Notes: generated by a model not told the origin, from the sequence alone. DNA of 64,000 nucleotides from a virus (IMGVR_UViG_2639763152_000002), one strand, 5' to 3'; positions 11,071 to 25,918 are shown, counted from the first letter of the stretch. Program-made: numbers and translations.

Positions 11071-11081
11071 CGCTCCTCCCA

Positions 11082-11140
11082 CTTTATTATCGGTTAAGGA
11101 GCATTAGAAAGGAACCATTCGCAAAATTTGTCGAACGAAA
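11082..11140 (-). promoter_or_regulatory. Upstream cassette with Spo0A box (copy A)
   Basis: TTTGTCGAACGAAA, with the 0A box TGTCGAA at 11129-11135. Near-identical to 12154-12210. Confidence 0.55.
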
Positions 11141-11200
11141 GTCCTTTATAAATAGGTGGCAACCGTAAGACGAAAAAGCATCATTTTATTATAGTTGCAA

Positions 11201-11413
11201 TTAACGTTTCTTTTTATAAGCCGTAATATCTTTTCTTAAGAAAAGACGATCTCTATTCGTTGTTTTGATTGGTTTCAATGTCCCATGATCAACTAGCTGT
11301 TTAAGGTTTTGACGAGTGCACCCGATGATTTCAATCGCTTCCGAGGTGGTTATGACTTCTTTATCAAAGAACTCTCTCAATTCTTCGACATCACTAAATA
11401 CAAACTTATCCAT
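11201..11413 (-). CDS. Helix-turn-helix DNA-binding protein (HTH_17 / excisionase-like), cassette A gene 3
   Basis: ITTSEAIEIIGCTRQNLKQLVDHGTLKP...RLFLRKDI pattern. Confidence 0.8.
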   Translation of the reverse strand: MDKFVFSDVEELREFFDKEVITTSEAIEIIGCTRQNLKQLVDHGTLKPIKTTNRDRLFLRKDITAYKKKR

Positions 11414-11588
11414 CCTTTGAATTCCTCCATTTCATAATTACGTTTATAATCGTCAGCGTGAGCCAGATAACTGCTAGCACTATTGATATTATGTCCAGTA
11501 CAGTCAGGTTGTTATAGTCCATACGAGCGAATTGTAAGCAGAACAAGACGAAAAATAACAGTGTTGTTGAGTCTAATATTTTTTTCAT
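11406..11588 (-). CDS. Small two-TM membrane peptide, cassette A gene 2
   Basis: 60 aa, hydrophobic; its stop overlaps the HTH start. Confidence 0.75.
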   Translation of the reverse strand: MKKILDSTTLLFFVLFCLQFARMDYNNLTVLDIISIVLAVIWLTLTIINVIMKWRNSKDG

Positions 11589-11636
11589 TATCTCCGAGCA
11601 TGGAATTTTAACGGTTTTGTTTAAGACCCATTAAGA

Positions 11637-11717
11637 TGTTATAATACAAGGAGGGGAAGTAATTCCCCTCATGGGTTATTTGCGACGTTTCTTCTTGGCG
11701 GGAGAACGTCGTTTTTT
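11637..11717 (+). ncRNA. Predicted type I antitoxin antisense RNA with promoter (cassette A)
   Basis: TG-n-TATAAT at 11637-11645; 5' hairpin GAGGGGAA-GTAA-TTCCCCTC; terminator CGACGTT...AACGTCG plus T6 ending at ~11717; overlaps the toxin 3' end. Confidence 0.65.
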
Positions 11718-11825
11718 GTTTTTATCACCCTTTAGGTCTTTGATGTTCTTGATCAGTGTCGTAATCCCAACGAGAATTCCGACTAACCAAGCTGTATCCC
11801 TAAGGATGAATTCAACGATTTCCAT
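11676..11825 (-). CDS. YonT-like small basic membrane toxin (type I TA), cassette A gene 1 (not in the ORF track)
   Basis: 49 aa, MEIVEFILRDTAWLVGILVGITTLIKNIKDLKGDKNKKRRSPAKKKRRK; RBS aaggaggtg; single TM plus polybasic tail. Confidence 0.75.
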   Translation of the reverse strand: MEIVEFILRDTAWLVGILVGITTLIKNIKDLKGDKNKKRRSPAKKKRRK

Positions 11826-11854
11826 GCTCGTTAACACCTCCTTTCGATACTTTA

Positions 11855-11888
11855 ATTATAACACTTATATTTACCACCGTCAATATAA
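11855..11888 (-). promoter_or_regulatory. SigA promoter with overlapping inverted repeat (cassette A)
   Basis: TTGACG-17-TATAAT (11883-11878, 11860-11855); inverted repeat TTATATT-N10-AATATAA at 11865-11888. Confidence 0.8.
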
Positions 11889-11956
11889 AATGATAAATAA
11901 TTAAAATTTTTTCACAGTTAAAACAAAAAACACCCCGAAGGGTGTCGTGGTTTAAA

Positions 11957-12136
11957 TTATTTAAATATATCGAAACTTGTTACACTTTTTAAGTTGATCA
12001 AAACAACTTTATGTTCAAGATTGATTATTAGTTGGTCTTTTTTTAGTTTATCAAGCAAATCTTCTTCTTCTTGGGCTTTGATTGAATACTCAGATGATGT
12101 ACCATCTATAAAATTAAAGCGAACATCAAATTTCAT
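11957..12136 (-). CDS. Small hypothetical moron protein (not in the ORF track)
   Basis: 59 aa, MKFDVRFNFIDGTSSEYSIKAQEEEDLLDKLKKDQLIINLEHKVVLINLKSVTSFDIFK; RBS gaaggtgg; downstream hairpin acaccccgaagggtgt. Confidence 0.7.
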   Translation of the reverse strand: MKFDVRFNFIDGTSSEYSIKAQEEEDLLDKLKKDQLIINLEHKVVLINLKSVTSFDIFK

Positions 12137-12153
12137 CTTGTACCACCTTCCAT

Positions 12154-12210
12154 CTTATTTTCGGTTAAGGAGTATTACAAAGAAACAATTGTAAAAATTG
12201 TCGAACGAAA
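12154..12210 (-). promoter_or_regulatory. Upstream cassette with Spo0A box (copy B)
   Basis: ATTGTCGAACGAAA, with TGTCGAA at 12199-12205. Aligns with 11082-11140. Confidence 0.55.
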
Positions 12211-12212
12211 CA

Positions 12213-13085
12213 TTAAAGGTCAGATGAAGCAACGAAATCTCGTAGTTCAGTTCTTCTATTTCTAATCGCTAAAGAAGTATGCTGAATAGCAGTAATAACT
12301 AAAGTTCTATGATCAATTCCTTTTACGTTGAATCTTTTAAGTGAGCTACTTGATATCTTATGAAACTTACCTTCTTCATCCCAGAAATCTAGTTGCTTCA
12401 CCTCAACACCAAACATATTCATAACACTTTTTGCAACAGGAGAATTTCTCAAGTCTCCATCTCCGCCTTTTCCTGGAGCTTTAAGTAAAATTTCATGCAT
12501 TCCGCTCTCATCTGCATTCCAAGCCTCTATCCAAGGTCTATTTAGGCGATCTTCTGAAAAAATTGTTGCATAATCATACAGGAATCTTCTAGTACCGGGA
12601 ATTTTCACCCATAAAGTACTCACTCTATATCTTTCAAATGCTTGTCTAAACGTATCCTCATTAATTTCCCTATCCGTATCTAAATAGTTAAATTCTGAAT
12701 TATAGACTTCTTGAAAGGCAGCCTCCATAATTAACCCAATTCTTGTCATTGTTGTTTCTTTCTTTAGGTTGTCAGCGGGATAATCACGATTTTGCACTAG
12801 AAATCTTTTTTCACGTAAATCAAATGCCATAATCGTATTAATACATGGCTCTATATCTGGTGCATATGAGTTATTTTCTTCATCTAATGCATTAACAATT
12901 GGATCATGTTCTTCACTGAAACAAAGAGTAATAACATGGTTTTCTTCATCAATTTCATTGGTTATAGTATAATAATAATCTCTTTCCCCATACTTCCTTC
13001 CGTAATTCTTTAAAAACTCATACAACTCAGCTGTTTTTTCCGTCAAATCATTAGCGTAAGTCAATTGATAGACCCTAAACTCCAT
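12213..13085 (-). CDS. Moron: 290-aa soluble protein of unknown function
   Basis: Long acidic ORF, AT-rich; own TATAAT-containing upstream region; no recognised motif. Confidence 0.8.
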   Translation of the reverse strand: MEFRVYQLTYANDLTEKTAELYEFLKNYGRKYGERDYYYTITNEIDEENHVITLCFSEEHDPIVNALDEENNSYAPDIEPCINTIMAFDLREKRFLVQNRDYPADNLKKETTMTRIGLIMEAAFQEVYNSEFNYLDTDREINEDTFRQAFERYRVSTLWVKIPGTRRFLYDYATIFSEDRLNRPWIEAWNADESGMHEILLKAPGKGGDGDLRNSPVAKSVMNMFGVEVKQLDFWDEEGKFHKISSSSLKRFNVKGIDHRTLVITAIQHTSLAIRNRRTELRDFVASSDL

Positions 13086-13164
13086 AAAAAAACCACCTTT
13101 TTCTAAAGATGGTTAAATTATATTATATTTTTTTACTTTTTACGACATTTTCCACTTATTTTTT

Positions 13165-13380
13165 TTAGAATGTTATAACTTCTTCTGCGTCGATCCATGT
13201 TTCAATTCCACTTTCTAATAACACTTGAACTTCTGTCCCGTGCCTTCCTGACACAATTCCTTTAATAACTCCAACTTGTCCATTTAAATGATCGCTGCTT
13301 GTAGAAGAAATTTCAACATTATCATTAACCGCCATTTTATCTCCCCCATTTGTAACTATTTCAAATTTATTCATACTCAT
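13165..13380 (-). CDS. Small hypothetical protein (KOW/SH3-like beta barrel?)
   Basis: RBS ggaaggtgagg before ATG at 13380; GQVGVI...VQVLLESGIETWI pattern. Confidence 0.6.
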   Translation of the reverse strand: MSMNKFEIVTNGGDKMAVNDNVEISSTSSDHLNGQVGVIKGIVSGRHGTEVQVLLESGIETWIDAEEVITF

Positions 13381-13461
13381 TTTAACCTCACCTTCCAATT
13401 TATTCAATGGCTTATACTGTAGTATTGTGTCAATTTTTTCTTTATATTATGTTGTAAAAAC

Positions 13462-13977
13462 TCATACTAAACAGAATAGGCTGTATTCTGCTCTATTTTT
13501 CATTTTTAAACGAGATCGCTCAATATTTTTCTGCACAGTTCCTTTTTTGATCTCCAATAACTGTGCGATCTCTTCGAATGACATGTGTTTAACAGCATGC
13601 ATCATGAATATGTCTTTTTCTCTTTCTGTGAGGACGGATAGGGCATCAGCGATTCTTTCCTTATCCCAATCACTTACCTCTCCCTCAGCTTCTTGAACGA
13701 TTGCGTATTCTTCCGATAGCGCATCAATTAAGCGCGGATCAGCAAGAATCGTCCTTTGATATGCGTCTCTTCTGTCAGCACCTCGGCGGGCGCCGGGCTG
13801 TCTTCCGTTCTGAAGCCATTCAAGAGTGAATTCAATATCACTGATCATACTGCCAATTATCTTCTTATCGTTCTTTTGTTCAGCTGTCATTTCAACTCCC
13901 GGTGTTTCCGAGAATGACCGGTACATCTTTCTTGCTTCTTTTAACGCTCTTTTATATTCAATGATTAAATCTTGCAC
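13462..13977 (-). CDS. Xpf/YqaQ-like positive regulator (sigma-70 region 4 HTH), probable late-gene activator
   Basis: MQDLIIEYKRALK...WLQNGRQPGARRGADRR...LTEREK...SFEEIAQLLEIKKGTVQ closely resembles PBSX Xpf and skin YqaQ. Confidence 0.85.
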   Translation of the reverse strand: MQDLIIEYKRALKEARKMYRSFSETPGVEMTAEQKNDKKIIGSMISDIEFTLEWLQNGRQPGARRGADRRDAYQRTILADPRLIDALSEEYAIVQEAEGEVSDWDKERIADALSVLTEREKDIFMMHAVKHMSFEEIAQLLEIKKGTVQKNIERSRLKMKNRAEYSLFCLV

Positions 13978-13996
13978 TTTTCATCATTCCTTTAAG

Positions 13997-14182
13997 TCAA
14001 AATGAATATGTATCGTTCCAATTATTACTTTTTTGTTCAGCAATATATTGGCGTCTAGATACCTCTGAAACTTTTAAGTTGAAAGTTTTGACCAAGAAGG
14101 ATTTCAACTCATTATAGAGTTCTTCTCTGCCGCAAAAGATATTTACAAGCTTTCCGTGTTTATAAGCGAATCCGTATTTCAT
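13997..14182 (-). CDS. Hypothetical phage protein
   Basis: 61 aa with good RBS (aaggggag), in the early operon. Confidence 0.65.
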   Translation of the reverse strand: MKYGFAYKHGKLVNIFCGREELYNELKSFLVKTFNLKVSEVSRRQYIAEQKSNNWNDTYSF

Positions 14183-14340
14183 CCTAAACTCCCCTTCTTC
14201 TTTCTGTGTTTAAATGGTCCGCTCTTGCCTCGTCTGAGTATTTGCTTGTTTAGGCCTTCATCGTCGCTAAAAACCTTACAGAACACTCCTAAGCGTTTTT
14301 ATTAGGCTTTTTCATTACTATTTCATGCCGTCCTTTGTTC

Positions 14341-14417
14341 AAATAAAAAACGGACACCAATCAGAGCACAGTAATTTGTGCAATGATCAGTGTCCGCAGG
14401 CTTTCCGTCTTGGACTA
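14341..14417 (-). terminator. Long hairpin / intrinsic terminator with a 5' auxiliary hairpin
   Basis: Minus strand GTCCAAGACGGAAAGCCTGC-GGACACTGATCA...TGATTGGTGTCC-GTTTTTTATTT. Confidence 0.6.
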
Positions 14418-14429
14418 TAAATTTTTTTT

Positions 14430-15104
14430 TTACTTTTTTAAAGTCTTACTATAACCAAATTTAATCATAAAGCTTATTAGGACTATAACTACTATGGCAA
14501 TCGAAATATCTTTAATCATTGACAGGTTATTCTGAAAAAAACCAGATAACTTTGGATATTTCATTATTGTCATATAACTAATTAGACAAGCTATATAAAT
14601 CAATGAAGTAGTAGTCATGTTTCTTTTTATTTTATCCATTTCTTTAATTTGCTTTATTCCTTTATCAAATGTAATTATGCCTTTGTCAGTTATAATTGGC
14701 TTAAACTCCAATTCTTCATCTTGTTTTGTTTTAATATCCCTCTTAAGATCTAATAAGTTGTTAGATATTTCGATTTTCTGATCTATAGAAAGAAAATTAG
14801 TTTCGGAAATATCTTTAATAAGAAGATCTAAAATATCATCAATGCTATACAAACTATGTTGTTTAACTTTATTTGATTTAGCATTGGCAGCGGATAGTGA
14901 CTCCAAAAGAGGTAAAGAAGGATTTTCTCCCTCTGATATAAAATCTTTCAAAGTATTAATTATTTGATTATTAGCTCTGTTAACTCTTTTAATATAATCT
15001 TTTCTTCCAAAAAACTTTGTTAGGGAATTTACAATAAAAGTACTTACTATTGCAGTTATTAAACTAACAATCCAGGGATTCGTTATCCAATCCATTTTCA
15101 ACAA
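14430..15104 (-). CDS. Moron: membrane protein (N-terminal TM, two C-terminal TMs)
   Basis: 224 aa, very AT-rich, with a central coiled-coil-like soluble region. Confidence 0.75.
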   Translation of the reverse strand: MLKMDWITNPWIVSLITAIVSTFIVNSLTKFFGRKDYIKRVNRANNQIINTLKDFISEGENPSLPLLESLSAANAKSNKVKQHSLYSIDDILDLLIKDISETNFLSIDQKIEISNNLLDLKRDIKTKQDEELEFKPIITDKGIITFDKGIKQIKEMDKIKRNMTTTSLIYIACLISYMTIMKYPKLSGFFQNNLSMIKDISIAIVVIVLISFMIKFGYSKTLKK

Positions 15105-15257
15105 CCTTTTTAAAATAAATCATACTATATTATGAAAAAATTTCATAATATTTTCGTTTGTTCATTCAGAAAAGAAACCATCCATCCCCTTTACTTTTGG
15201 GTCACTTTGACGGATGTTATTTTTACAAATCACTGATATATTTTGCTTTTCATCCTT

Positions 15258-15515
15258 TCATCCCTCTATCCCAGGCAGGACAGAGATTATAAAGAACACA
15301 ACCACAACTACCGTGCATATCAACCAACTATTCATTTTATCCCGTTTTGCGATGATTGTTTCATCACCAATCATCTTTAAATCATCTGAACGCGCTACAA
15401 GGATCGGTATATATTGTTTGGGAACTTTCAAATAATCTGCTGCCTGTTCAACGGTCATCGCTTCATCTTTCGTTGCTTTGACGACACGTTGTAATTTGAC
15501 TTGTAATGGCATCAA
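15258..15515 (-). CDS. Hypothetical protein with C-terminal TM
   Basis: 85 aa; N-terminal HTH-like MTVEQAADYL and a hydrophobic C-terminus. Confidence 0.65.
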   Translation of the reverse strand: MMPLQVKLQRVVKATKDEAMTVEQAADYLKVPKQYIPILVARSDDLKMIGDETIIAKRDKMNSWLICTVVVVVFFIISVLPGIEG

Positions 15516-15550
15516 TTCAAAAACCCCTTTGCTGAATAATTACATTCGTT

Positions 15551-15754
15551 TTATTTCACCTTGAACCCTATTTCGTGATCGACTCGTGCAAAGCTGCCTT
15601 TTGAGGTTTGGATGATGGTCTTTCCGTGCTCTGGGACATCCAATACATGCGCTGTTCCTTCAGTACCATCTAAAACGATGATACGGATTTTCCCAGGCTC
15701 CATACTTTGCTGAATACTTCCTTCATGATTTTTAATTTCTTTGGGGTTGTACAC
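15551..15754 (-). CDS. XtrA/YqaO family protein
   Basis: EPGKIRIIVLDG.EGTA...PEHGKT motif; RBS ggaggag, GTG start. Confidence 0.75.
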   Translation of the reverse strand: MYNPKEIKNHEGSIQQSMEPGKIRIIVLDGTEGTAHVLDVPEHGKTIIQTSKGSFARVDHEIGFKVK

Positions 15755-15768
15755 CTAGACTCCTCCTG

Positions 15769-15830
15769 TGCTATGATAGAAGTACCAATTCGAATCATAA
15801 GCACTGAGGCATAAGCTTCGGTGTTTTTTT
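15769..15830 (+). ncRNA. Candidate ~47-nt antisense-strand sRNA with promoter
   Basis: TG-c-TATGAT at 15769-15777; terminator CACTGAGGC-ATAA-GCTTCGGTG-T7 at 15802-15830. Confidence 0.45.
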
Positions 15831-15836
15831 ATATCC

Positions 15837-16001
15837 TTAGTACGGATTTTCCCAGCCGCTCATTGTGAACGCCGGAGACGGCTTTAGTTCCTCTCGGTAT
15901 ATGATTGGATGTTTTTCGACATATGCTGCCAGTTCTTCCGGCGTCATCTTCCATTCCTTTACCGGTCCTGGTACGTAAGGATTGTTGTTGTTTTCTTGCA
16001 T
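15837..16001 (-). CDS. Hypothetical phage protein
   Basis: RBS caggagg before ATG at 16001; EWKMTPEELAAY motif. Confidence 0.65.
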   Translation of the reverse strand: MQENNNNPYVPGPVKEWKMTPEELAAYVEKHPIIYREELKPSPAFTMSGWENPY

Positions 16002-16051
16002 GTTGTTAACCTCCTGATTATTTGATTTACGATCCATAGAAAAGCTACCTG

Positions 16052-16480
16052 TCATGACTCAATCTCAGTTATAATGACTTCCACCCGCGGCTCTTCACTG
16101 TAAAACTTACTGACCTTCAAATCGACTACCTGACTATCATCCTTGTATATCAGATGATTTAAAGCGTCTTTGACACCTTTTACATAGTTATCGACGTCCG
16201 GCTTTGTTACAGGGCGTAAAAGTCCTTTTTCAGCGTTCTCCTTTTTCCTCTTGGATCCGGATACAGCTTTCGGCATCGGTCTGAATACTCTGACTTCCAT
16301 TGCGACAGGACCAACAATAACCTGCTTCGGTCGATGCTGAGACGCAACCAGTGCCACATACTGCTTAAAATTTTTTGACTTTACAGGATCGTACATTCTA
16401 ACCTTTCCGTTTTGAATGGATCCCCGCGGCCGTCCTTGTGCGATCGGCTCTCCATAAACAATAAACTGAATAGAACTCAA
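16052..16480 (-). CDS. rusA: RusA family Holliday junction resolvase
   Basis: PIAQGRPR, KPDVDNYVKGVKDAL and YKDDSQVV...K.Y motifs. Confidence 0.93.
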   Translation of the reverse strand: MSSIQFIVYGEPIAQGRPRGSIQNGKVRMYDPVKSKNFKQYVALVASQHRPKQVIVGPVAMEVRVFRPMPKAVSGSKRKKENAEKGLLRPVTKPDVDNYVKGVKDALNHLIYKDDSQVVDLKVSKFYSEEPRVEVIITEIES

Positions 16481-16487
16481 CAGCCTT

Positions 16488-16583
16488 TTACCTCCCGTCA
16501 ATCTGTTCCCAATGCTCGATCTGCTTTTCCTTGTAAGGTGCAGTCAGTAATATGACTGGCAGCGCAGCAACTGCTTTAAGCAC
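16488..16583 (-). CDS. Very small hypothetical peptide
   Basis: 31 aa, MLKAVAALPVILLTAPYKEKQIEHWEQIDGR; overlaps the upstream ORF and fills the operon gap. Confidence 0.35.
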   Translation of the reverse strand: MLKAVAALPVILLTAPYKEKQIEHWEQIDGR

Positions 16584-16719
16584 TTCTCACCAGCTCCATT
16601 TGCCTTATTTTCTCCTCCAGGACCCTAATCGCCGGTGTGAGATCCTGTCCGCCTGTCTGTTCAGCGGGGCCGAACATATAAATCCCTCCGGATCCTTGAA
16701 CGTTCGTTTTTAAGCTCAT
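16576..16719 (-). CDS. Small hypothetical protein
   Basis: 47 aa, [21 protein letters not shown]...; ATGA-coupled to the DnaC-like stop. Confidence 0.55.
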   Translation of the reverse strand: MSLKTNVQGSGGIYMFGPAEQTGGQDLTPAIRVLEEKIRQMELVRSA

Positions 16720-17663
16720 TCCCATTCTCCTAACCTATGATTTAATTGCATTCGGTCTCCCTTGATGATTACCGTATAGTTACGGCACATCTGATGTATC
16801 CGAGATCCGAGCGCTTCGTCTATATCTAATAATGCTGCTGTATCTAATTCTGATGAAATCAGCAGTGGCTTGTGGTTCAGGTAGCGATAATTAACGACCG
16901 ATTGGATCTGCTCAACCTGCCAATCCGTGGCCCGCGGTTCTCCCTTTACTGGTTTAAATAAATCGTCGATGAATAGAACGTCCGCTTTTCTCATTGCATC
17001 AAGCTTGGACTCTAGTTGATCAAAGTTGTCTCTTAAATTCCCCATCCCTTCGACGTAAGGGAAATACATGCAGTAAACAGACTTTTTCTTAATAAGGTTG
17101 TTCATGATTGCCGTTAATAGGTGCGTTTTTCCGCTGCCAGGCTGCCCAAGGAGGGCGATGCTGTTCGAACGTTCTCCTTTAACTTTTTGAAAATCCTTAA
17201 AGTATTCCATAGCGCACTCATATGCTTCTTTAATCATGTCAGGCTTGCCGTCTGTAATGAAATTACCGAATAAAAGCATTTCAAATTCCTCGGTAATACC
17301 GCTGGCTTCCATAAGCCGGGCGATCTTTTTCCGTTTCACACACTCACATTGCTTGGAATACGTGGTTTTCCACTCCCGGGCCTGATCCGGTAAGCACACT
17401 TTTCCTGCAAGGTAATCCTCTTCCCTCACCATTTGATCAGCGTTTAGACTCTCCATTGTTTTTTGTTCTTTTCTCAGCTGCCGTTCAGTATCTTGGTGAA
17501 CCCGATAAACAATGATTCCTTTGTCCTTGCAGTCAAGGCAATCATATTCAGCCTTTTTTTCTGAGACGGCCTGTTCCGCTGAAAATTGGGCTGACCTGTC
17601 CCGTAGTTTTTTGAGAATGCCCGCCATTGCCATGTCCGTACTTTGTGTTTTGTGAGCTATCAT
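16716..17663 (-). CDS. DnaC/IstB-like AAA+ helicase loader (YqaM/XkdC-like)
   Basis: Zn motifs CLDC...CEC, Walker A GQPGSGKT, Walker B VLFIDDL. Confidence 0.92.
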
Positions 17664-18258
17664 GTTGTTTTTTCTCCTTTCTCTTCTGCGTAAACGGATT
17701 TGATAGAACTGCTTCAATGTAATTTAAACCAACCTTGCTGCCTTTGTTCCTGAAAGCCTGTTTCATAGCCTCCATGACCTTCTCCTCGCCGTAATCTTCA
17801 ACCATATAGCCAATTCGCTGAGCTTCAATTGGTCCGATAGTACGGGCGACTTTGTTCTCGAATAATTCAAAGACATTTTTCACTTTTTCATCAACTTCCT
17901 TTCTTTCTTCCGACACTTGGACAAGGTCCTTCTTCTTGTTGTAATTGCCAAGCTGTATGTAATCCGCGTAATTCAAAACTGTGACAATAAAGCCGCGTTT
18001 TTGCGGCAGCCTGTCCAGTTTTAAATACTCCTGCTTGACCATTCTGTCTAACGAGTATTTGATCTGATCGGATGACCAATTAAAACGCTTTGCTAATTCC
18101 ACAAGCTTAATGATTGTCTGACCGGGCTCTAAATCCTGATCCGCTCTATACTCTGCCCGTTTGAATAAATGATCGTATATTGTCTCATCCCGTGAATCTT
18201 TAAATGGCAGGCGGGGTAAAATGACATATCCTAATCCTTGCGTATCCATATCGCTCAC
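17548..18258 (-). CDS. Phage replication initiator with DnaD domain (YqaL-like)
   Basis: N-terminal winged helix; VFELFENKV...EAMKQA...GLNYIEAVL DnaD motif. Confidence 0.85.
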
Positions 18259-18447
18259 CTACTTCCTTTTACACACTGCTGTTAGAGCCTTAAAATCAAT
18301 ATCTGTTAATTCTAAAGATGGTTCATTTGTCTTCAGATAGTCCGTTACATACCGTGTATATAAGCCCTTCCTCATATCACGCCTAACTGTCTTAACCAGC
18401 CAGTAATAACAATGCGGAATCGGAACCTTAATTAAATCCTTTTCCAT
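18259..18447 (-). CDS. Hypothetical protein
   Basis: 62 aa from MEKDLIKVP; TGATG-coupled to the nuclease stop. Confidence 0.65.
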   Translation of the reverse strand: MEKDLIKVPIPHCYYWLVKTVRRDMRKGLYTRYVTDYLKTNEPSLELTDIDFKALTAVCKRK

Positions 18448-19247
18448 CAGCTGATCAGCTCCGAGAAATGAATAATACTGTTTAACTGATTTGTTGCACG
18501 GCAATATTTGCATCTCTCACACCGCTCCGGCTTTTCACCGCCGTGTTTCACTTGCAGGATACGACCCATACGCTGCTCAATCTCTTCAAGCTCTACTTCC
18601 ATTCGGCCCTTATCGATATTAATGACTGCCTTATCCGGCGGATCCTCTTTAGACACACCCACGATAAGAGGCTCAAGCCACTCGTTACGCCCAGTCATAC
18701 GCCTTTCCATTTCTGCGTAAAGCGCCATCTGTCCGATGTATCCGTATGCTTCGACAAACGAGCAATAGCCTATTTCCGGATTCCACACCTTTTCTCGAAG
18801 TGAACGGGTTGTTTTCAGATCTGCAAAACGGCTGCCGGCCGGGTTGTATACGTCCAGCTTGCCTTTCCACGGAACACCGAAGAGTTCGGCCGTTACGATA
18901 ACTTCTTTTGCTCCTTGCAGAACGAACATACAGAGTTCGTCATGTTGAATCGCCTCAATCATCAGATCAGCTAACTGATATTGCTTGTACAGCTGGCCTT
19001 TTTGTGTAAAAAGTGATGGCGTGTTTCTCTTGAATTCATCAAATACCTGTTTCCCTTCAAGCCAGGCATGAACATATTGACCGAAGAGGAGAGCCTCTGA
19101 ACCCGGCGGCACCCATTCACCGTTAATCTTGGCCATTGTTGCCGCCTCGCATTGCAGAAAGCTCTTATATTGAGAATTTGACATGTAATATCTATCAATC
19201 TCGTTAGAATAGTAATTCTCCTTGTTTAGCGCCGGAATCGTCCTCAT
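18447..19247 (-). CDS. PD-(D/E)XK exonuclease (DUF3799 / RecE-like)
   Basis: MSNSQYK, FGQYVHAWLEG, WKGKLD...DLKTT and YGY..QMALY motifs. Confidence 0.85.
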   Translation of the reverse strand: MRTIPALNKENYYSNEIDRYYMSNSQYKSFLQCEAATMAKINGEWVPPGSEALLFGQYVHAWLEGKQVFDEFKRNTPSLFTQKGQLYKQYQLADLMIEAIQHDELCMFVLQGAKEVIVTAELFGVPWKGKLDVYNPAGSRFADLKTTRSLREKVWNPEIGYCSFVEAYGYIGQMALYAEMERRMTGRNEWLEPLIVGVSKEDPPDKAVINIDKGRMEVELEEIEQRMGRILQVKHGGEKPERCERCKYCRATNQLNSIIHFSELIS

Positions 19248-20124
19248 CAGCAGGATCACCAGCCTTTTTCTTTTTTTCATCTGCCTTCCCAACTTGCTCT
19301 TTTTGCTTTTTAAATTCTTCTTCAGCCTTTGACTTAGTCGCGCCTGTGGCCTTGATATTGAAGTAATCCTCTTTCTTTGCCATCCCATCACGAAGGGACG
19401 TGTAAATGCGTCCAATTTTCAAGAAATCTTGTTCAGTGAAAGCATCGATCGAATTGCCGATGTATTCCTGGATCATTTCTTTTGTAACGCCAAACTCTTT
19501 TTTGAAAAGAGATAAAGCGTTTCTGAGACGATCCTCCAAAGGTTCTTTATGACCGCTGATTAACGTTTGCTGACACATATCAACCGCAGCATCTACGATA
19601 TCGCCTGGAATTACTCCAAGTATGCAGGCACGCAACCGCCGCGCGCCTTGATTAGCAACCATTTCATAAATATCCCTTGGATCATCAAGCTTTGTAATAG
19701 CACCGCGCGCTTTCCGTTCATGCTTAACCGTGAAAATCTTGGTTTGACGGGTATTCGTTTCGAGGTCCCAGGCATAAGCCATGACAGACGATTCTCCTGC
19801 CTTCTGTTCCAATTCCATAATCCCGTAATCAATGTTCCCCCAGTTCTGCGCCAACGCTTCAGCAAGACGTATAGAAGGACCAGATACTTTTGAGCCGCCT
19901 CGGGGATATTCATACACCGCGTTCTCAGCCAACAGTCTCCGTTCACATGCTTTCTTAATCCGATCGAACGCCGCGTATACATCCCGCGGGAATTTCTTAG
20001 CAATGACCATAGCAGCCTGTACCTCTTGAGCTTGGCGACTGACCATAGCTTCGGTAGTCACGTTGGTTGCCTGTTGAGGTGCGGGCATATAATCTGAGTA
20101 ATCTACCTGAGACAATCCATTCAT
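19204..20124 (-). CDS. Putative single-strand annealing recombinase partnering the exonuclease
   Basis: 306 aa; AKKFPRD, YPRGG.KVSGPSIRLAE..AQNWGNI motifs; Red-like position next to an exonuclease. Family not firmly identified. Confidence 0.6.
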   Translation of the reverse strand: MNGLSQVDYSDYMPAPQQATNVTTEAMVSRQAQEVQAAMVIAKKFPRDVYAAFDRIKKACERRLLAENAVYEYPRGGSKVSGPSIRLAEALAQNWGNIDYGIMELEQKAGESSVMAYAWDLETNTRQTKIFTVKHERKARGAITKLDDPRDIYEMVANQGARRLRACILGVIPGDIVDAAVDMCQQTLISGHKEPLEDRLRNALSLFKKEFGVTKEMIQEYIGNSIDAFTEQDFLKIGRIYTSLRDGMAKKEDYFNIKATGATKSKAEEEFKKQKEQVGKADEKKKKAGDPADEDDSGAKQGELLF

Positions 20125-20309
20125 TTTGCTGCCACCTCTCTCAAATAAGCTTTTGTGCCGCGCCTCTGCCATTCTCGGTATGCGTCCATTGACGGAAAAC
20201 TGAAAACAGGACGGCCATACTTATCAAATGTAATTGAACCGCCAACCTGACTTAAACGTTCCTGGTCGTCCGCCCGGTCGCTGAATGACACTGTAATTGA
20301 TTTTGCCAT
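20121..20309 (-). CDS. Hypothetical protein
   Basis: 62 aa, RBS ggagg, coupled to the downstream gene. Confidence 0.65.
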   Translation of the reverse strand: MAKSITVSFSDRADDQERLSQVGGSITFDKYGRPVFSFPSMDAYREWQRRGTKAYLREVAAK

Positions 20310-20410
20310 TTATAAAACCTCCATTGTTTTCTATGAGGCGTTTTGATATAATTAGGTTCCAATCAATAATCAAAACGCCTGACGAAGTCCACTTTGCCGA
20401 GTGGGCTTTT

Positions 20411-20608
20411 TTATTGCGCTGTTTGAAATTCAAAACCAAACTGCTCCTTTAAGTACCGTTCAAGATTATCCCTCAAAATTACCTCGCCGCTGTCGATTAC
20501 ATAATCATCTGTTGGCATTATGATGTCCCCAAAAAAATCCTTTTTCATTTCAGGTTCTGACGTTTTATCGTGCCAGTTGTTCAAAACCATTGGATTTTCA
20601 ATGTTCAT
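20411..20608 (-). CDS. yqaI: YqaI-like protein
   Basis: IENPMV.NNWHDK...DDYVID.GE.IL..NLERYL.EQ.GFEF matches skin YqaI as recalled. Confidence 0.75.
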   Translation of the reverse strand: MNIENPMVLNNWHDKTSEPEMKKDFFGDIIMPTDDYVIDSGEVILRDNLERYLKEQFGFEFQTAQ

Positions 20609-20862
20609 TGCGAGCACCTGCTTATTACAGTTAAATTAATACCTCGCTGCTGCATTTTCATAGCTACATCGTACAAACGGCCTTTGTTTGCTAACCGGTT
20701 AATATCCTCCGTCAAAACTTTTATGCTTCCGGCTAAGCTAATGGCCTCCTCGTAATCACCATCACGCAAGGCCTCACATAGCATAATCGCCAATTCTTCT
20801 GCTGAATCCACTTTCCGTTTAGCAGCTTCTAAATCTGATTTAAGAAATTGATTGTTGTTCAT
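20605..20862 (-). CDS. yqaH: YqaH-like protein (DnaA/Spo0A-interacting)
   Basis: [41 protein letters not shown]...MQQ.GINLTV.SRC is near-identical to skin YqaH as recalled. Confidence 0.85.
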
Positions 20863-21431
20863 ATCGTAATTGCCTGCCTCTCCTCATGATTTGCCATTGC
20901 TACTTGATCAACTAGCGCTTTTCTTGTCCACCTATCCGCTAGTTCTTGTATCTTTAAACCGTGTCCGCGGGCTAGTGAATAGATGAGTGTCTTATTTGCC
21001 GGGATAAGATCGAAAATCTGTTTAATATCACCCATTGGCAGTTCCCCTGCCCTCCTACCCGGCCTGTCACTTGCCAGCCAACGGGCTAGGTGTTTTGTTG
21101 CTTCCAACGCCTCTTCCAGCTGATGGACCATATTGATTACCGCGGCACTTGCACTTTCATTTAATGCAGGATCAATGGGCGCAGCCGCTGTTGGGTGCAG
21201 ACGGAAAAGATAATGCACGAGATCAATATGTTCATAGGCTTCACATACTTCAAACCACTTAATGCATAGTTCAGGAGTGAGTTTGCTAAAGCCATTTTCC
21301 ACATCAGAAACATATCGTTGATCCTTTCCCCCAATTAAATTACCGATTTGATACTGTGCAAGGCCCGCCGATTTTCGGACACCACGCATAATCTGCGGTA
21401 AATTTCGCAAATTGTATGGGTTGTTCTCCAT
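20859..21431 (-). CDS. Xre-family HTH protein (YqaG-like)
   Basis: 190 aa; N-terminal HTH ([12 protein letters not shown]...YVSDVENG); synteny with yqaH and yqaI. Confidence 0.75.
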
Positions 21432-21488
21432 ATGTTTGCCTCCTGATATATTCAGTTTTTTACTGATAAAATTTAAGTAATGAAAATA

Positions 21489-22217
21489 CTAACTTGCCTG
21501 TTGCTTTTTCAACTTGTTAATGATGTAGGCTTGTCCCTTTGGTGTAATCTTCATTGTGAGCCACGTTTTTGACTTTCCGCTTACTTCTCGAACTCCCTGT
21601 GCTACTTCAAAGTAACCGCGGTTCACATATTCTTGATAAGGTTCATTTTTGTTGGAAAAGATCATCTTCCAATCTCGTAATTTCTGAAACAACTGCCTCT
21701 CACCAATAACAATGCCTTGTTTTGATGCAAGTTTTGCAACCTCTCTGACAAGCAGGGATTTTTCAGACGCCATACACGATTCAGCAAAACTGACCAACGG
21801 CTCCTGAATCCTCAATGTTTGTTCAAGCTGTTGCCGTTCTTCCTGTTCGGTGATCCATCGCTTTGCTCGGCTGACTGGATCATCAATCATATAAGACGGC
21901 TGCTTTAGTTTCTGAAGCTCATTTTCCATTCGGTTAAACTCCGAAATATACTTTTCCTTGAACAGCGCTGCCTTTGCACCTGTGTAACCAAAAACTAAGA
22001 ATGTAAGACCGTCACGCTTGATGAGATATTTTTTATAAGTGCGATTCCTATTGTCCTTATATTCAACCTCCCCAAAATTGTGGAGATTAAATTCTTTACT
22101 AGAATCAAGGTTTTTAATATCACGTAAAACATGATCATGACGCTTTCCGAATACCTCAGCAACAGTCAGGCTATCGGTTACAACTTGATCGCCTTCAATA
22201 AAAACAAGTTGATTCAT
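21489..22217 (-). CDS. Rha-family regulator with C-terminal antirepressor (KilAC/ANT) domain
   Basis: DSLTVAEVFGKRHDHVLRDI, FLVFGYTG.KA..FK..YI..FN.ME; C-terminal GERQLFQKLR...KITPKGQ.YI. Confidence 0.9.
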   Translation of the reverse strand: MNQLVFIEGDQVVTDSLTVAEVFGKRHDHVLRDIKNLDSSKEFNLHNFGEVEYKDNRNRTYKKYLIKRDGLTFLVFGYTGAKAALFKEKYISEFNRMENELQKLKQPSYMIDDPVSRAKRWITEQEERQQLEQTLRIQEPLVSFAESCMASEKSLLVREVAKLASKQGIVIGERQLFQKLRDWKMIFSNKNEPYQEYVNRGYFEVAQGVREVSGKSKTWLTMKITPKGQAYIINKLKKQQAS

Positions 22218-22528
22218 GCGGTTGCCCCCTTACGGAAATACTGGGTATTTTCCTCCACCCAACGGGTATTTCTTTCAATCCATTTAAAAAGCAGCTGGGT
22301 TGGAATTTTCTTGCCGAACTCATCATTTACCGGGAAATCAGGTCGCGACATGAGTTCAGACATTTTTGTTTGACCGCATCTGAGTACTTTCATCGCTTCT
22401 TCTCTGGTTAAGATGTGAGGAAGCTCATTCAACGCTCCCAGCCGCTCGACTAACATATCTGTTGCCCTATCAGCAATTTTTGCTGCAATTTGATCAATGA
22501 AGTTATCGTCGTATTGCATGGTAAACAT
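22214..22528 (-). CDS. Excisionase-like HTH protein
   Basis: ILTREEAMKVLRCGQTKMSELMSRPDFP...KIP winged HTH; follows Cro. Confidence 0.7.
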   Translation of the reverse strand: MFTMQYDDNFIDQIAAKIADRATDMLVERLGALNELPHILTREEAMKVLRCGQTKMSELMSRPDFPVNDEFGKKIPTQLLFKWIERNTRWVEENTQYFRKGATA

Positions 22529-22540
22529 ATTTGGTACCTC

Positions 22541-22759
22541 CTATGCTGTGTTTGATTTTTGTTTCGAAACGACGACATTTTCTTCAAAAAAAAGCGTCCA
22601 ATCGACATCAAAGTTGTTAGCAATTCTCTTTGCTAGTTTTACTGAAGGATTTCTCTTTCCTAATTCAATGTTCGCGTAAGCACCTCTAGAGATACCAATT
22701 TCCTCAGCTGTTTCCTGTTGGCTTTTGTCTCCACGGATGTCTATCAACCATTTCCTCAA
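22541..22759 (-). CDS. Cro-like Xre repressor
   Basis: TTG start after GGGGGGTG; SQQETAEEIGISRGAYANIELGKRNPS HTH; divergent from cI. Confidence 0.88.
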   Translation of the reverse strand: MRKWLIDIRGDKSQQETAEEIGISRGAYANIELGKRNPSVKLAKRIANNFDVDWTLFFEENVVVSKQKSNTA

Positions 22760-22780
22760 TAGATTCACCCCCCTATTTGC

Positions 22781-22890
22781 GTCGAAACGAATCATTTGTT
22801 TTTATGATATCGTCCATTAGAAACAATGTCAATAACTTTTTCGTCGTTTTGACACAAAACTTTATTTGTTTCATTTCGACACGTTATAAT
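22781..22890. promoter_or_regulatory. Divergent lysis/lysogeny promoters with repeated asymmetric operators TGTTTC-N5-GAC
   Basis: Leftward TTGACA(22832-22827)-17-TATCAT; rightward TATAAT at 22885-22890. Operators at 22781-22794, 22812-22825 and 22867-22880, plus 22560-22573. Confidence 0.7.
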
Positions 22891-22912
22891 GTTTAATGAA
22901 TGAGGTGAAATT

Positions 22913-23290
22913 ATGTTTAAAGACCGGTTAATTCAACTCCGTAAAGGCAAGAAGTTAACACAAGAACAAATGGCTGAAAAGGTTGGCGTTCACAGGGGCA
23001 CATATGCTAATTATGAAAGAGGCCATAGACAGCCAGACTATGAAACATTAGTTAAAATAGCTGATTTCTTTGAAGTCTCTACAGATTACTTGCTGAGAGG
23101 TCAAGAGTACTACCAAGATAAAGCTAAAGAACTCCGTAAGCAGAATGATGTTCGTTTTGATAATGTCGAAGGACAGGAACTGATGACGGAGGATGAAAAA
23201 GATAAATATCTTGCAGATGCTCTAAGGCGACTTGATGGAATTGAAAAAATGATTGCAGAGAATTTCAAAAACAAAAAAGAGGAAAAGTAA
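22913..23290 (+). CDS. Prophage repressor (ImmR/Xre-like, no S24 peptidase domain)
   Basis: RLIQLRKGKKLTQEQMAEKVGVHRGTYANYERGHRQPDYETLVKIADFFEVSTDYLLRG; only 125 aa. Confidence 0.92.
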   Translation: MFKDRLIQLRKGKKLTQEQMAEKVGVHRGTYANYERGHRQPDYETLVKIADFFEVSTDYLLRGQEYYQDKAKELRKQNDVRFDNVEGQELMTEDEKDKYLADALRRLDGIEKMIAENFKNKKEEK

Positions 23291-23524
23291 TTATTCTATA
23301 TTGTTTATTAAGTTATTTCTGTTATTTCTGTTTACTAATAAGATCGGAACTTGAACCGGAATACAAATGAACCCGATCCGAAAGGATAATTTCACCATGT
23401 TCCTAATCCCTTATGGTTCAAGGGTTTTCAATCTTATTCTCATCTGAAACTGATCCGGACTTGAACGGAATCTCATCAGTAAAAATCGAGTCGTTGAGAA
23501 AAGTCCTGTTTTTAAATTTTGATT

Positions 23525-23546
23525 AGCCCTTTTAGGGCTTTTCTTT
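23525..23546 (+). terminator. Probable terminator downstream of the repressor
   Basis: AGCCCT-TTT-AGGGCT followed by TTTCTTT. Confidence 0.5.
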
Positions 23547-23661
23547 AAACAAAACACCAGAACATAAGTTCTTTTCCAGAATACATTAACTCTCCTCCCC
23601 CTACTCATTAATTTCATTTGTATTTAAAACAACTCCTATACTTAATCTAAGAGGTGAAAGA

Positions 23662-24858
23662 ATGTATACCAAAGAATTAATCAAGGGTAAAAAATGGTTA
23701 GCAGTTGGAGAAGGCCCTCGTGACCCAGTCACCGGCAAACGAAAGCAAATTCCGCGGCGAGGCAAAACAAAAAAAGAAGCCGAGCAAAGAGTCCGTGATG
23801 CAATTGCAGCTTTAAATGAAGATGGCATCGATGAATCAAGAGTGAAAAAGATAACTTTTGATCAAGTCGCAGCCGAATGGTTGGAAGAGTATATGTTAAC
23901 AGGGAAGAAAAAGAACACTGTCCGAATCAGACGAGAAGAGATAAAAATATTAAATGCCTACATTGCCAAATCCATCATCAATAAAATAACCTTGAGACAG
24001 TATCAAAAAATACTTAACAAACTATCAGAACAAGGGTATTCACGAAGCACTATGAATGGAGTACATACGACAGCAGGCATGATATTTAAGTATGCTGTTA
24101 AAGTAAAGTTTCTTAAAAGCAATCCTATTGCAGATGCTATAGTGCCTAAAAAAAGAATAACCGTTGAAGAAATTGAAAATAACAACATAGCTGAAAAATA
24201 CCTCGAAAAATCGGAGATCGAGGAATTTCTTTTAGCAGTTAAAAATCACGGTCTACACATGGATCTGGAACGATTTTATTTACTTGCTTTTTCAGGTATG
24301 CGATCCGGGGAGTTATGTGCCCTCAAATGGTCTGACATCAATTTCGAAACAAAAGAACTCCGGATAACTAAAACCATTTATTCAGAAAGTAATAACATGA
24401 GAGAGTATGAATTAACTCCACCCAAAACACCTGGATCAATTCGAACAATTGCTATAGACGATCAAATTATAGCCATGCTGAAAGCATATAAAACGAAAGT
24501 GAAAAAGATGCATTTGCAATCACAAACAAAATTATCTGAGTACCATAATGAAAACTTTATTTTCGCAAGAGCAAACGGGTACCCTTACCTGCCAAAAAGC
24601 ATCATATATCGGATGGAAAGAATTCTAAAAAAAACATCCATAAAAAAACATGCGACTCCTCACATATTCAGACACTCACATATCAGTATGTTAGCTGAAG
24701 CAGGTGTCGATATTGCGACCGTGATGAAAAGAGTCGGCCACGATGATGTGAAAACAACAATGAAAATCTATACCCACGTTACAAATAAAATGAAAGAGGA
24801 TGCCTCACAAAAAGTTCAGCAAACTTTCGGAAGCATCCTCGATCTCGGAATTTCATAA
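23662..24858 (+). CDS. int: Tyrosine integrase
   Basis: 398 aa; SGMRSGE, HIFRHSH, VGH and IYTH catalytic motifs; N-terminal arm-binding and SAM-like domains. Confidence 0.97.
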   Translation: MYTKELIKGKKWLAVGEGPRDPVTGKRKQIPRRGKTKKEAEQRVRDAIAALNEDGIDESRVKKITFDQVAAEWLEEYMLTGKKKNTVRIRREEIKILNAYIAKSIINKITLRQYQKILNKLSEQGYSRSTMNGVHTTAGMIFKYAVKVKFLKSNPIADAIVPKKRITVEEIENNNIAEKYLEKSEIEEFLLAVKNHGLHMDLERFYLLAFSGMRSGELCALKWSDINFETKELRITKTIYSESNNMREYELTPPKTPGSIRTIAIDDQIIAMLKAYKTKVKKMHLQSQTKLSEYHNENFIFARANGYPYLPKSIIYRMERILKKTSIKKHATPHIFRHSHISMLAEAGVDIATVMKRVGHDDVKTTMKIYTHVTNKMKEDASQKVQQTFGSILDLGIS

Positions 24859-24863
24859 AGAAA

Positions 24864-25098
24864 TGTTATTAAAATGTGATTTTTTTAATAAAAACGGATA
24901 ACTAACCCTCTTGAACCCTTGTCACATCAAGGGTTTTTTTCGTTTTAGGAATCATATTATAAATAAGTTGTTCACTTACCGCACACTTTCATAACGTGTT
25001 ATTTCCCTTTAACTTCAAGCTTTTGAGCACTTTCTAAGCAGAAACACATTCACGCATTTTCATCCTTGAATGTGATTTTTGTTATTTTTGTGTTATTT
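24864..25098. other. attP-like region (arm-type repeats flanking a presumptive core)
   Basis: TGT(G/T)ATT repeats at 24864, 24875, 24997, 25071, 25080 and 25091, directly after int; phage genes continue on both sides. Confidence 0.65.
24914..24940 (+). terminator. Integrase terminator
   Basis: AACCCTTG-TCACAT-CAAGGGTT followed by a T tract. Confidence 0.7.
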
Positions 25099-25116
25099 TT
25101 TTCGAAATATAAATCA

Positions 25117-25347
25117 TTAATCATCATACGGCCGATACTTCTTCCGACCAGCTTCCAGTTCTTTTTTTTGTGCCTCAACATGGCTCAGAAGAAATAAACT
25201 CACTGTTCCTACTTTCTTAACCGGATTCAATTTCCCAGAGCTCACGAGAGCGCTTAAACGCTGCCTCGTGACACCGAGCAATTCTCCGGTTTCCGCTGCA
25301 GTCAGTACTTCTTTTTGAATGAACTGTATCTTTTCATTTTCTGTCAT
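25117..25347 (-). CDS. Helix-turn-helix DNA-binding protein (HTH_17-like), cassette B gene 3
   Basis: VLTAAETGELLGVTRQRLSALVSSGKLNP...SLFL; paralog of 11201-11413. Confidence 0.8.
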   Translation of the reverse strand: MTENEKIQFIQKEVLTAAETGELLGVTRQRLSALVSSGKLNPVKKVGTVSLFLLSHVEAQKKELEAGRKKYRPYDD

Positions 25348-25534
25348 GTCTGTTCTCTCTCCAAATCAGAATAAAACCTTTTAGTATGGTGACGATCGCA
25401 GCCATATATAAGATGACAACTGCAATCTTCCCCAATGTTCCAGCTGTTTCAAAATCAATTGCAACAATACCCACTAATATAATAAACAACGTCGTCATAT
25501 CTAATGTATTGTAGTGCTTTAAATATTTTTTCAT
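25334..25534 (-). CDS. Small two-TM membrane peptide, cassette B gene 2
   Basis: 66 aa; shares MKK.L...D.TTL.F and a C-terminal WR motif with 11406-11588. Confidence 0.75.
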   Translation of the reverse strand: MKKYLKHYNTLDMTTLFIILVGIVAIDFETAGTLGKIAVVILYMAAIVTILKGFILIWRENRHDRK

Positions 25535-25547
25535 ATCATCGTGGACG

Positions 25548-25632
25548 TGATATAATGTAGGAGCAAGGGGATTACTCCCCTTGTCTTACTATGTTTTAGC
25601 GCTTCTTGCTTGTCCGGCGGGAGCGCTTTTTT
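25548..25632 (+). ncRNA. Predicted type I antitoxin antisense RNA with promoter (cassette B)
   Basis: TG-a-TATAAT at 25548-25556; hairpin CAAGGGGA-TTAC-TCCCCTTG; terminator AGCGCT...AGCGCT plus T tract inside the toxin 3' end. Confidence 0.65.
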
Positions 25633-25739
25633 CTGTTCTTCTCTCGCTTCTCGCTTTCCTTCTGCCAAATATCATAAATATTTTTGACAATGGTTACGAT
25701 TCCAGCGATGATAAGAACTATGTTTCTGATCTCGTCCAC
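25596..25739 (-). CDS. YonT-like small basic membrane toxin, cassette B gene 1
   Basis: GTG start after aaggaggtg; 47 aa, MDEIRNIVLIIAGIVTIVKNIYDIWQKESEKREKNRKKRSRRTSKKR. Confidence 0.75.
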   Translation of the reverse strand: MDEIRNIVLIIAGIVTIVKNIYDIWQKESEKREKNRKKRSRRTSKKR

Positions 25740-25764
25740 TTTAGCACCTCCTTTCGATACTTTT

Positions 25765-25800
25765 ATTATACCAAACCTATTTACAACAGTCAATAGGTTT
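25765..25800 (-). promoter_or_regulatory. SigA promoter with overlapping inverted repeat (cassette B)
   Basis: TTGACT-17-TATAAT (25793-25788, 25770-25765); inverted repeat AAACCTATT-N10-AATAGGTTT. Confidence 0.8.
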
Positions 25801-25918
25801 ACGTGAATTAATCTCCTTTATTGAAAATTTTTTATTTATATTTCCGCAAAATAAAAATATGGATAAACATCCTTAATTCCTTTAAAATGGAATCATCGTC
25901 TAAATTCAGGGGGATATT

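Follow-up and report, generated by a model that had tools for sequence, protein, structure and literature searches.

Two cassettes of a temperate phage genome may join a yonT-like type I toxin-antitoxin locus to a dedicated winged-helix repressor

A 64,000-nucleotide (nt) stretch of viral DNA (IMGVR_UViG_2639763152_000002; the whole stretch is referred to as the window) carries two cassettes, A and B, each with two small membrane-peptide genes, a predicted antisense RNA and a helix-turn-helix (HTH) gene behind a promoter that lies in a palindrome. We lean towards reading each cassette as a type I toxin-antitoxin locus resembling yonT/SR6/yoyJ, in which yonU would have been replaced by a dedicated autorepressor. 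An initial annotation of the window had described one layout common to 11201-11888 and 25117-25800, and every element that it listed was found in its place. The sizes given for the open reading frames (ORFs) were borne out at 49/47 amino acids (aa) for the peptide with one transmembrane segment, 60/66 aa for that with two, and 70/76 aa for the HTH protein, as were the near-consensus SigA promoters, both of which match the consensus at 11 of 12 positions and have a TG-extended -10 box. The parts of the cassettes are as follows.

11201-11888, minus strand: cassette A, whole.
11865-11888, minus strand: operator-like palindrome of A, 10+10 nt with a 4-nt centre, covering the -35 box and the promoter spacer.
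11855-11883, minus strand: SigA-type promoter of A, TTGACG-17-TGtTATAAT.
11679-11825, minus strand: A1, one-transmembrane peptide with a polybasic tail, 49 aa; putative YonT-like type I toxin.
11617-11645, plus strand: antisense promoter of A, TTGTTT-17-TGtTATAAT.
11652-11720, plus strand: predicted antisense RNA of A, ~70 nt, with a 5' hairpin (11651-11670) and a terminator hairpin with U-run.
11409-11588, minus strand: A2, two-transmembrane peptide, 60 aa, in the position of YoyJ, with a weak ribosome-binding site.
11204-11413, minus strand: A3, MerR/Xis-type winged-helix protein, 70 aa; putative autorepressor.
25117-25800, minus strand: cassette B, whole.
25773-25800, minus strand: operator-like palindrome of B, 12+12 nt with a 4-nt centre, covering the -35 box and the promoter spacer.
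25765-25793, minus strand: SigA-type promoter of B, TTGACT-17-TGgTATAAT.
25599-25739, minus strand: B1, one-transmembrane peptide with a polybasic tail, 47 aa, GTG start; putative type I toxin.
25528-25556, plus strand: antisense promoter of B, TTTTCA-17-TGaTATAAT, 10/12 matches, extended -10.
25563-25632, plus strand: predicted antisense RNA of B, ~70 nt, with a 5' hairpin and a terminator within the basic-tail codons of the putative toxin.
25337-25534, minus strand: B2, two-transmembrane peptide, 66 aa, without a recognisable Shine-Dalgarno sequence.
25120-25347, minus strand: B3, winged-helix protein, 76 aa, with the conserved C-terminal motif RKKYRPY.

Judged from their sequences, cassettes A and B are true but old paralogues. 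The sole DNA similarity between them is a stretch of 55 nt of promoter and leader at 84% identity, and the leader reported as shared is common to both over 19 nt. A1 and B1 are 41% identical (E 2e-7); each has one hydrophobic stretch, 11 Lys/Arg among its last 16 residues, and GGAGGTG upstream, which for A1 includes the GGAGG ribosome-binding site. The two HTH proteins have diverged, as had been noted, and A3 and B3 retain 44% identity (E 4e-15), while the similarity of A2 to B2 is insignificant (E 0.1) and the two are alike in shape only. The third gene overlaps the second in both cassettes, the start of A3 overlapping the end of A2 by 8 nt and B3 overlapping B2 by 14 nt. None of the four peptides (A1, A2, B1, B2) had an above-threshold match in Pfam or NCBIfam, and an ESM Atlas search with B2 and A1 returned solely unnamed or chance-level clusters. 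A1 matches PHROG 23844 (E 5.7e-7); no PHROG match was found for YonT.

Relatives were sought with two HTH alignments in 105 genomes (the family around the nearest genome) and in IMG/VR viral contigs, and 177 loci were found, which represent 152 distinct gene combinations. Co-occurrence of the three ORFs was confirmed, with one-transmembrane peptide, two-transmembrane peptide and HTH protein standing in this order in 117 of the 152. A further 23 had a two-transmembrane ORF abutting the HTH gene and a first peptide that the filter did not detect, and 12 had the HTH gene alone; altogether, a transmembrane ORF abuts the HTH start in 140/152. The tail of the first peptide is polybasic in most subtypes. 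The module was found in >100 prophages of the Bacillus subtilis group, the cereus group and related genera, and two cassettes coexist in at least 13 other proviral contigs, where they belong to different subtypes in every pair with both operators readable. Bacillus phage Deep-Purple (L180, record 13652-14318) has a homologous cassette, gp19-gp18-gp17, with gp17 annotated as 'excisionase'; it lies on the opposite strand, with the scaffold gene on one side and the major head gene on the other, and this insertion into a head module is a clear sign of the module moving as a unit. In phage B13 the cassette stands in front of HNH/terminase genes, as cassette A does in the window.

The promoter palindrome probably ties the HTH protein to its own operon. 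An inverted repeat over the -35 box, as previously described, is present in both cassettes, but the repeats are longer than had been stated and form palindromes (24 bp in A, 28 bp in B) around a 4-nt centre, with one mismatch each where the -35 box requires G. The statement that the operator arms differ was accurate for the outer 3-5 nt, whereas the inner 7 nt of each arm are identical in A and B. The core TATTKAC-N4-GTMAATA has exactly three occurrences in the 64 kb, each at a cassette promoter, and was not found in the cI/cro intergenic (immunity) region, where other repeats occur. For palindrome statistics, 119 distinct promoters were aligned by their -10 box, with the dyad centre found 16 nt upstream of it. 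The symmetric positions typically number 9-10 of 12, versus 3-4 at control centres of the same sequences. Counted outwards from the centre, positions 3, 4, 6 and 7 hardly vary (TT.AC / GT.AA). Symmetry is usually lost at position 5, since the left arm also serves as the -35 box, and positions 8-12 are variable, yet symmetrically so. When symmetry was counted per position in the 15 clusters that the HTH proteins form at 75% identity, position 10 was symmetric in 15/15 with three bases (C 9, T 4, A 2), position 9 in 12/15, and position 8 in 10/15 with four bases.

Operator and HTH protein were found to covary, as would follow from the cognate pairing proposed in the initial annotation: the half-site type tracks the HTH subtype, and the outer positions change symmetrically. 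B-type HTH proteins (G-V/I-T/S-R/K-x-R) pair with the half-site CTATTKAC, the A-type protein of the window (GC-T/S-RQNLKQL) pairs with ATATTKAC, other A-type groups pair with TTATTTGAC or TTAGTTGAC, and further subtypes have variants of their own. By sequence comparison, the arrangement is that of an autoregulated operon, with a dyad-symmetric site that overlaps the core promoter and co-varies with the HTH protein. Symmetric change in both arms is what would be predicted for a dimeric DNA-binding protein with evolving specificity and is strong circumstantial evidence; that the HTH protein binds the palindrome is likely. The 12 HTH-only relatives have no palindrome of the cassette type upstream, which speaks neither for nor against autoregulation.

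The convergent antisense unit that had been proposed is present in both cassettes. A plus-strand extended -10 box between the peptide genes is followed directly by a hairpin and, ~45 nt on, by a terminator hairpin and U-run inside the basic-tail codons of the putative toxin. The predicted RNAs fold at -25.6 kcal/mol (z -3.5) in A and -30.1 kcal/mol (z -4.9) in B, and that of A is complementary to the last ~14 codons of the A1 mRNA and its 3' hairpin. Among the relatives, TGnTATAAT was found on the opposite strand in 69/82 distinct spacers, acidic-tail subtypes included. A 5' hairpin occurs in 53/53 distinct antisense units (median -15 kcal/mol versus -7.2 for shuffles, per-sequence folds) and a downstream U-run in 51 of the 53. 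These hairpins comprise 41 different sequences from at least 8 unrelated stem families, so that sequence varies where structure is retained; RNAalifold on 16 diverged units gave no consensus structure because their alignment is too divergent. The layout by which T1TAdb defines YonT/as-YonT, a convergent 3'-side antisense gene overlapping the ORF end, is present here by prediction. By analogy with yonT and SR6, first peptide and antisense RNA very probably form a toxin/antisense pair.

The antisense strand also resembles a Listeria RNA. The Rfam rli48 model (RF01479) gave sub-threshold matches on this strand at six cassettes, with 22-38 bits versus a gathering score of 100: window 11633-11747 and 25544-25655 (both plus strand; E 0.05 for the latter, at cassette B), L012:1918-2089, L001:4424-4536, and the loci in L182 and L183. 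An RNA-only scan of 151 sampled Bacilli genomes returned two sub-threshold rli48 hits, both inside cassettes of this kind, and no match at the Rfam cut-off; rli48 was likewise not found in Listeria phage A118. It is known as half of an antisense pair (partner rli98) with a patchy, mobile-element-like distribution (PMC5689173, PMC4179725). The likeness is that the model matches the cassette antisense strand in the same relative place at six loci; the difference is that every match is far below the 100-bit gathering score, the cassettes having been compared via the Rfam model alone. Listeria rli48/rli98 may play the antisense and toxin parts in a related cassette, which is a lead, not proof.

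The description of the HTH proteins as HTH_17-like fits A3 (29.6 bits; Pfam PF12728 cut-off 27), while B3 falls just below the cut-off with 25.5 bits. An AlphaFold2 model of B3 (38 family members, predicted local distance difference test score 87.7) begins with an N-terminal helix and a short strand, continues with the helix-turn-helix and a beta-hairpin wing, and ends in a long C-terminal helix. Foldseek matched this model to CbpM, RacA, BldC, Pukovnik Xis, MtaN, GlnR and RdfS with probability 0.99-1.0, TM-score 0.5-0.63 and modest E-values; the HTH-family profile had no meaningful match among Protein Data Bank sequences. GlnR/TnrA, BldC, RacA, Pukovnik Xis and RdfS share the strand-HTH-wing plus C-terminal helix fold, but GlnR/TnrA, BldC, RacA and the Xis proteins are only 12-26% identical to the cassette HTHs, which are without an effector domain. 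GlnR and TnrA bind palindromes as dimers. Unlike other MerR-like proteins, the B-type cassette HTHs have an extra N-terminal helix and the RKKYRPY motif. The underlying pattern L-R-x-K-Y-R-P-Y-D/E, after the last helix, is strongly conserved in the B-type, modelled with low confidence and absent from the A-type. In PADLOC, the HTH alone matched a small HTH component, mad1 (E 4.5e-7 and 8e-4); the cassette peptides matched no defence model, and the HTH match is generic. The HTH domain was also seen as the C-terminal end of far longer proteins, namely a ~270-aa ORF in an IMG/VR contig (L142) and, in Geobacillus phage phiOH2 (record 23202-23414), a protein annotated DprA/SMF.

Public RNA data were consulted as assembled contigs from 14 RNA-seq runs of four studies that contain the whole cassette A stretch; stretches with little or no cover were not taken as silence. 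In one run per study, a single contig spans ~10.49-13.35 kb, taking in the whole of cassette A along with the moron genes on either side, at depths of 94, 166, 649 and 210, versus 0.4-60 for adjacent terminase, late-regulator and replication contigs. This island (10490-13350) holds a 199-aa membrane protein, cassette A, a 59-aa ORF and a 290-aa PHROG 19551 protein, and is possibly where prophage expression is highest. The cI-integrase region is covered too, and the cassette B stretch 24937-26644 has a depth of 104 in one run. The uneven depth argues against plain DNA carry-over, and the contigs lend weak support to transcription of the moron island in lysogens. Lysogen RNA contigs from the four studies run into unrelated sequence at 24793 and 24966, which places the att core between the integrase gene (23662-24858) and cassette B, and therefore places cassette B at the prophage end opposite the integrase in lysogens. 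ARAGORN found no tRNA gene in 24600-25200.

We propose that each cassette is an autonomous phage 'moron'. A strong SigA promoter would give one mRNA that encodes first the toxin, a charged-tail peptide with a single membrane pass, and, beyond a hairpin, a poorly translated two-pass peptide and then a translationally coupled winged-helix protein of 70-76 aa. An antisense RNA of ~70 nt, made from the extended -10 promoter in the spacer, would pair with the toxin mRNA over its last 11-14 codons and its 3' hairpin; by analogy with SR6, this mRNA would then be degraded or silenced. A dimer of the winged-helix protein would bind the 24-28-bp palindrome and occlude the -35 box and spacer; by repressing its own operon it would cap the supply of toxin mRNA. 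The A and B copies would each be mainly self-regulated, because the outer operator positions (8-12 nt from the centre) and the HTHs differ. What the analysis establishes is the anatomy and how it is conserved, the symmetric and covarying palindrome, the HTH fold, and that lysogen RNA libraries contain the region. We infer toxicity, RNA-RNA pairing and mRNA decay from the yonT analogy and from type I systems in general, and DNA binding and repression by the HTH protein from the palindrome.

Several observations weigh against this proposal. The similarity to YonT is marginal (BLASTP E 0.02 versus B1, E 0.004 versus a cereus-type peptide), and no similarity of A2 or B2 to YoyJ was found. In several subtypes the tail of the first peptide is acidic or mixed charged, not basic. 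Promoter and HTH gene are linked within 700 bp, so the subtype covariation could partly be co-inheritance. The identical operator core in A and B makes cross-binding possible, and the copies, which had been called orthogonal, deserve the term for their outer operator positions and HTHs but not for the inner core. The 12 stand-alone HTH relatives without a palindrome indicate that the HTH family is not limited to an autorepressor role. RNA support is weak because the runs were selected through the cassette A stretch itself, and the contigs give neither strand, transcript ends nor per-gene levels. The hybrid module of RNA antitoxin and protein autorepressor put forward in the initial annotation stands as to layout, co-conservation and palindrome covariation, but homology to YonT and YoyJ is marginal and nil, respectively. 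The part in prophage stabilisation or abortive infection that the annotation suggested for it is a mere possibility. The relation to yonT is one of architecture and probable distant homology, not of demonstrated family membership.

Of the other explanations, the one that survives best, although it is unlikely, is that the two peptides are a regulated pair of small membrane proteins with a function in the lysogen (superinfection exclusion, holin-like or membrane remodelling), whose level the HTH protein and antisense RNA tune. The cassettes do lie among lysogenic-conversion genes (glycosyltransferase, sigma-like factor, membrane proteins), the region seems well represented in lysogen RNA, the acidic tails of several subtypes suit such a pair, and B2 has a weak match to Phage_holin_2 in Pfam (E 0.004, below cut-off). 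However, no exclusion or holin family was matched above threshold in Pfam, PHROGs, NCBIfam or PADLOC, and a one-transmembrane peptide with a charged tail and a convergent, 3'-overlapping antisense RNA with its terminator in the ORF is the defining Gram-positive type I layout, which in SPbeta is toxic and controlled by SR6 (PMC5848175).

It is less probable still, and in our judgement improbable, that some other factor, whether from the host or encoded elsewhere in the phage, binds the palindrome, or that the palindrome functions as a hairpin in RNA or DNA, with the cassette HTH regulating other targets. An inner core common to all subtypes is what a single factor would lead one to expect, and stand-alone HTH relatives without the palindrome fit as well. 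Against this, the outer positions shift symmetrically and in step with the linked HTH subtype, co-resident cassettes differ at these outer positions, the HTH is the only DNA-binding gene co-inherited with the promoter across prophages of the Bacillus subtilis and cereus groups, and the motif was not found at the phage immunity region.

The least probable explanation is that the HTH proteins are excisionases (recombination directionality factors), with peptides and palindrome as mere neighbours, which would account for the matches of A3 and B3 to PHROG 4691 ('excisionase'; E 1e-24 and 1e-28), a weak match to TIGR01764, the folds of Pukovnik Xis and RdfS, the end of B3 ~150-320 bp from the att core (24793-24966, between B3 and the integrase) and the recombinase that likewise adjoins the HTH homologue in phage yong1. 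It is set aside because cassette A lies ~12 kb from the integrase, two copies are present in this phage and in at least 13 further proviral contigs where one per element is expected, homologous cassettes sit in the Deep-Purple head module and ahead of the B13 terminase, the HTH gene is translationally coupled to a membrane peptide in 140/152 cases, the yong1 recombinase is a serine one versus a tyrosine one here while the HTHs are nonetheless 80% identical, and the conserved site is a palindrome in the HTH's own promoter rather than att-arm direct repeats. Fold alone cannot tell a repressor from an excisionase, but given this context we regard the 'excisionase' label of PHROG 4691 as a generic domain label; B3, which ends next to attP, may have a dual role.

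Self-comparison of the window showed that bases 1-21156 equal 42924-64000 at 99.5% identity; the window is ~1.5 units of a ~42.9-kb phage genome in its attP form. The copies differ at 138 sites, all within the first 12 kb, and 107 of these are single-base indels. The repeat looks like an untrimmed circular or concatemeric long-read assembly; a tandem prophage was judged less likely, since 107/138 differences are single-base indels and the differences are confined to one 12-kb part. Because the window spans ~1.5 genome units, cassette A repeats near 54047-54732 (minus strand), with A1 and A3 frameshifted by single-base indels; these frameshifts look like assembly (homopolymer) errors, and the repeat is not an independent third copy. 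The gene content is that of a temperate siphovirus, with terminase, portal, head, tail and endolysin genes, a moron island, a tyrosine integrase, a cI/cro-like pair, an anti-repressor, replication genes and a sigma-like late regulator. Among named phages, Bacillus phage yong1 (Spizizenvirus) comes nearest, with 72% nucleotide identity over cassette B, and close relatives were found in Bacillus atrophaeus, B. mojavensis and a Gottfriedia acidiceleris assembly. Contig 20 of the latter (strain RNC-1; 44247 bp, L172) is essentially the phage of the window, whereas the Bacillus subtilis group accounts for all other close relatives; contamination or a broad host range may explain this contig. A 66-bp direct repeat (11075-11140 and 12146-12210, 83% identity) flanks cassette A plus the 59-aa ORF on both sides, each copy just upstream of an unrelated gene, and may be a common promoter or a scar of cassette insertion.

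A broader reading, which we hold only tentatively and consider doubtful, is that the cassettes represent a large unrecognised family of portable three-layer addiction/defence modules in Bacillales prophages, with an RNA antitoxin and a dedicated protein repressor, diversified operator/repressor specificities and the repressor as trigger. If so, several copies could coexist without cross-talk because these specificities have diversified, and loss or dilution of the repressor (on prophage loss, or when a superinfecting phage stops host transcription) would result in a burst of membrane toxin. On the main proposal already, YonT-like loci would extend from five Bacillus species to well over 100 prophages, and a dedicated repressor inherited together with its cognate operator would give type I systems a layer of transcriptional control and a link to three-component type II logic. 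The module offers natural sets of short, apparently specific and easily tested operator-repressor pairs, and it also suggests that 'excisionase' (PHROG 4691) is the wrong label for many phage genes.

The initial annotation knew of no version of the yonT locus ending in an HTH gene with a cognate operator, and the literature agreed: no description was found of a type I system with a cassette-encoded repressor, either in the full-text literature searched, which does not take in every journal, or in the T1TAdb paper, and the module appears to be previously undescribed. The parallel to SPbeta yonT-SR6-yoyJ that had been drawn held when the yonT region sequence was compared, with the same order and strands: the yonT promoter, a 58-aa peptide with a polybasic tail, a hairpin right after the stop, the SR6 -10 box on the other strand, the two-transmembrane yoyJ, and then yonU. 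Transcription from the yonT promoter continues through yonU and yonV on a single RNA, SR6 has ~65 nt of overlap with the 3' end of yonT and promotes decay of the yonT mRNA, yonT is toxic and SR6-controlled, and yoyJ is poorly translated and weakly toxic (Reif et al., PMC5848175). Both loci are prophage-borne and share an extended -10 SigA promoter, a one-transmembrane peptide with a polybasic tail, a hairpin after the stop, a convergent antisense RNA from an extended -10 box (predicted in the cassettes), a two-transmembrane peptide with a poor ribosome-binding site and a small third gene in the same operon. They differ in this third gene, which in the cassettes encodes a winged-helix protein coupled to the two-transmembrane ORF, whereas YonU is a coiled-coil protein of 62 aa that has its own promoter and is no HTH protein. 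The cassette promoter lies inside a 24-28-bp palindrome, and none of that kind was seen at the yonT promoter; the predicted antisense RNA is ~70 nt versus 100 nt and stops short of the start of the two-transmembrane gene. YonT homologues are known in only five Bacillus species (PMC5848175), versus >100 prophages of several genera for the cassette module. A small dedicated DNA-binding protein that would repress the operon via promoter repeats is a likeness to omega-epsilon-zeta and paaR-paaA-parE. These are three-component toxin-antitoxin operons with a separate repressor, of type II, with protein antitoxins and cytosolic toxins; in the cassettes, by contrast, the putative antitoxin is an RNA and the putative toxins are membrane peptides.

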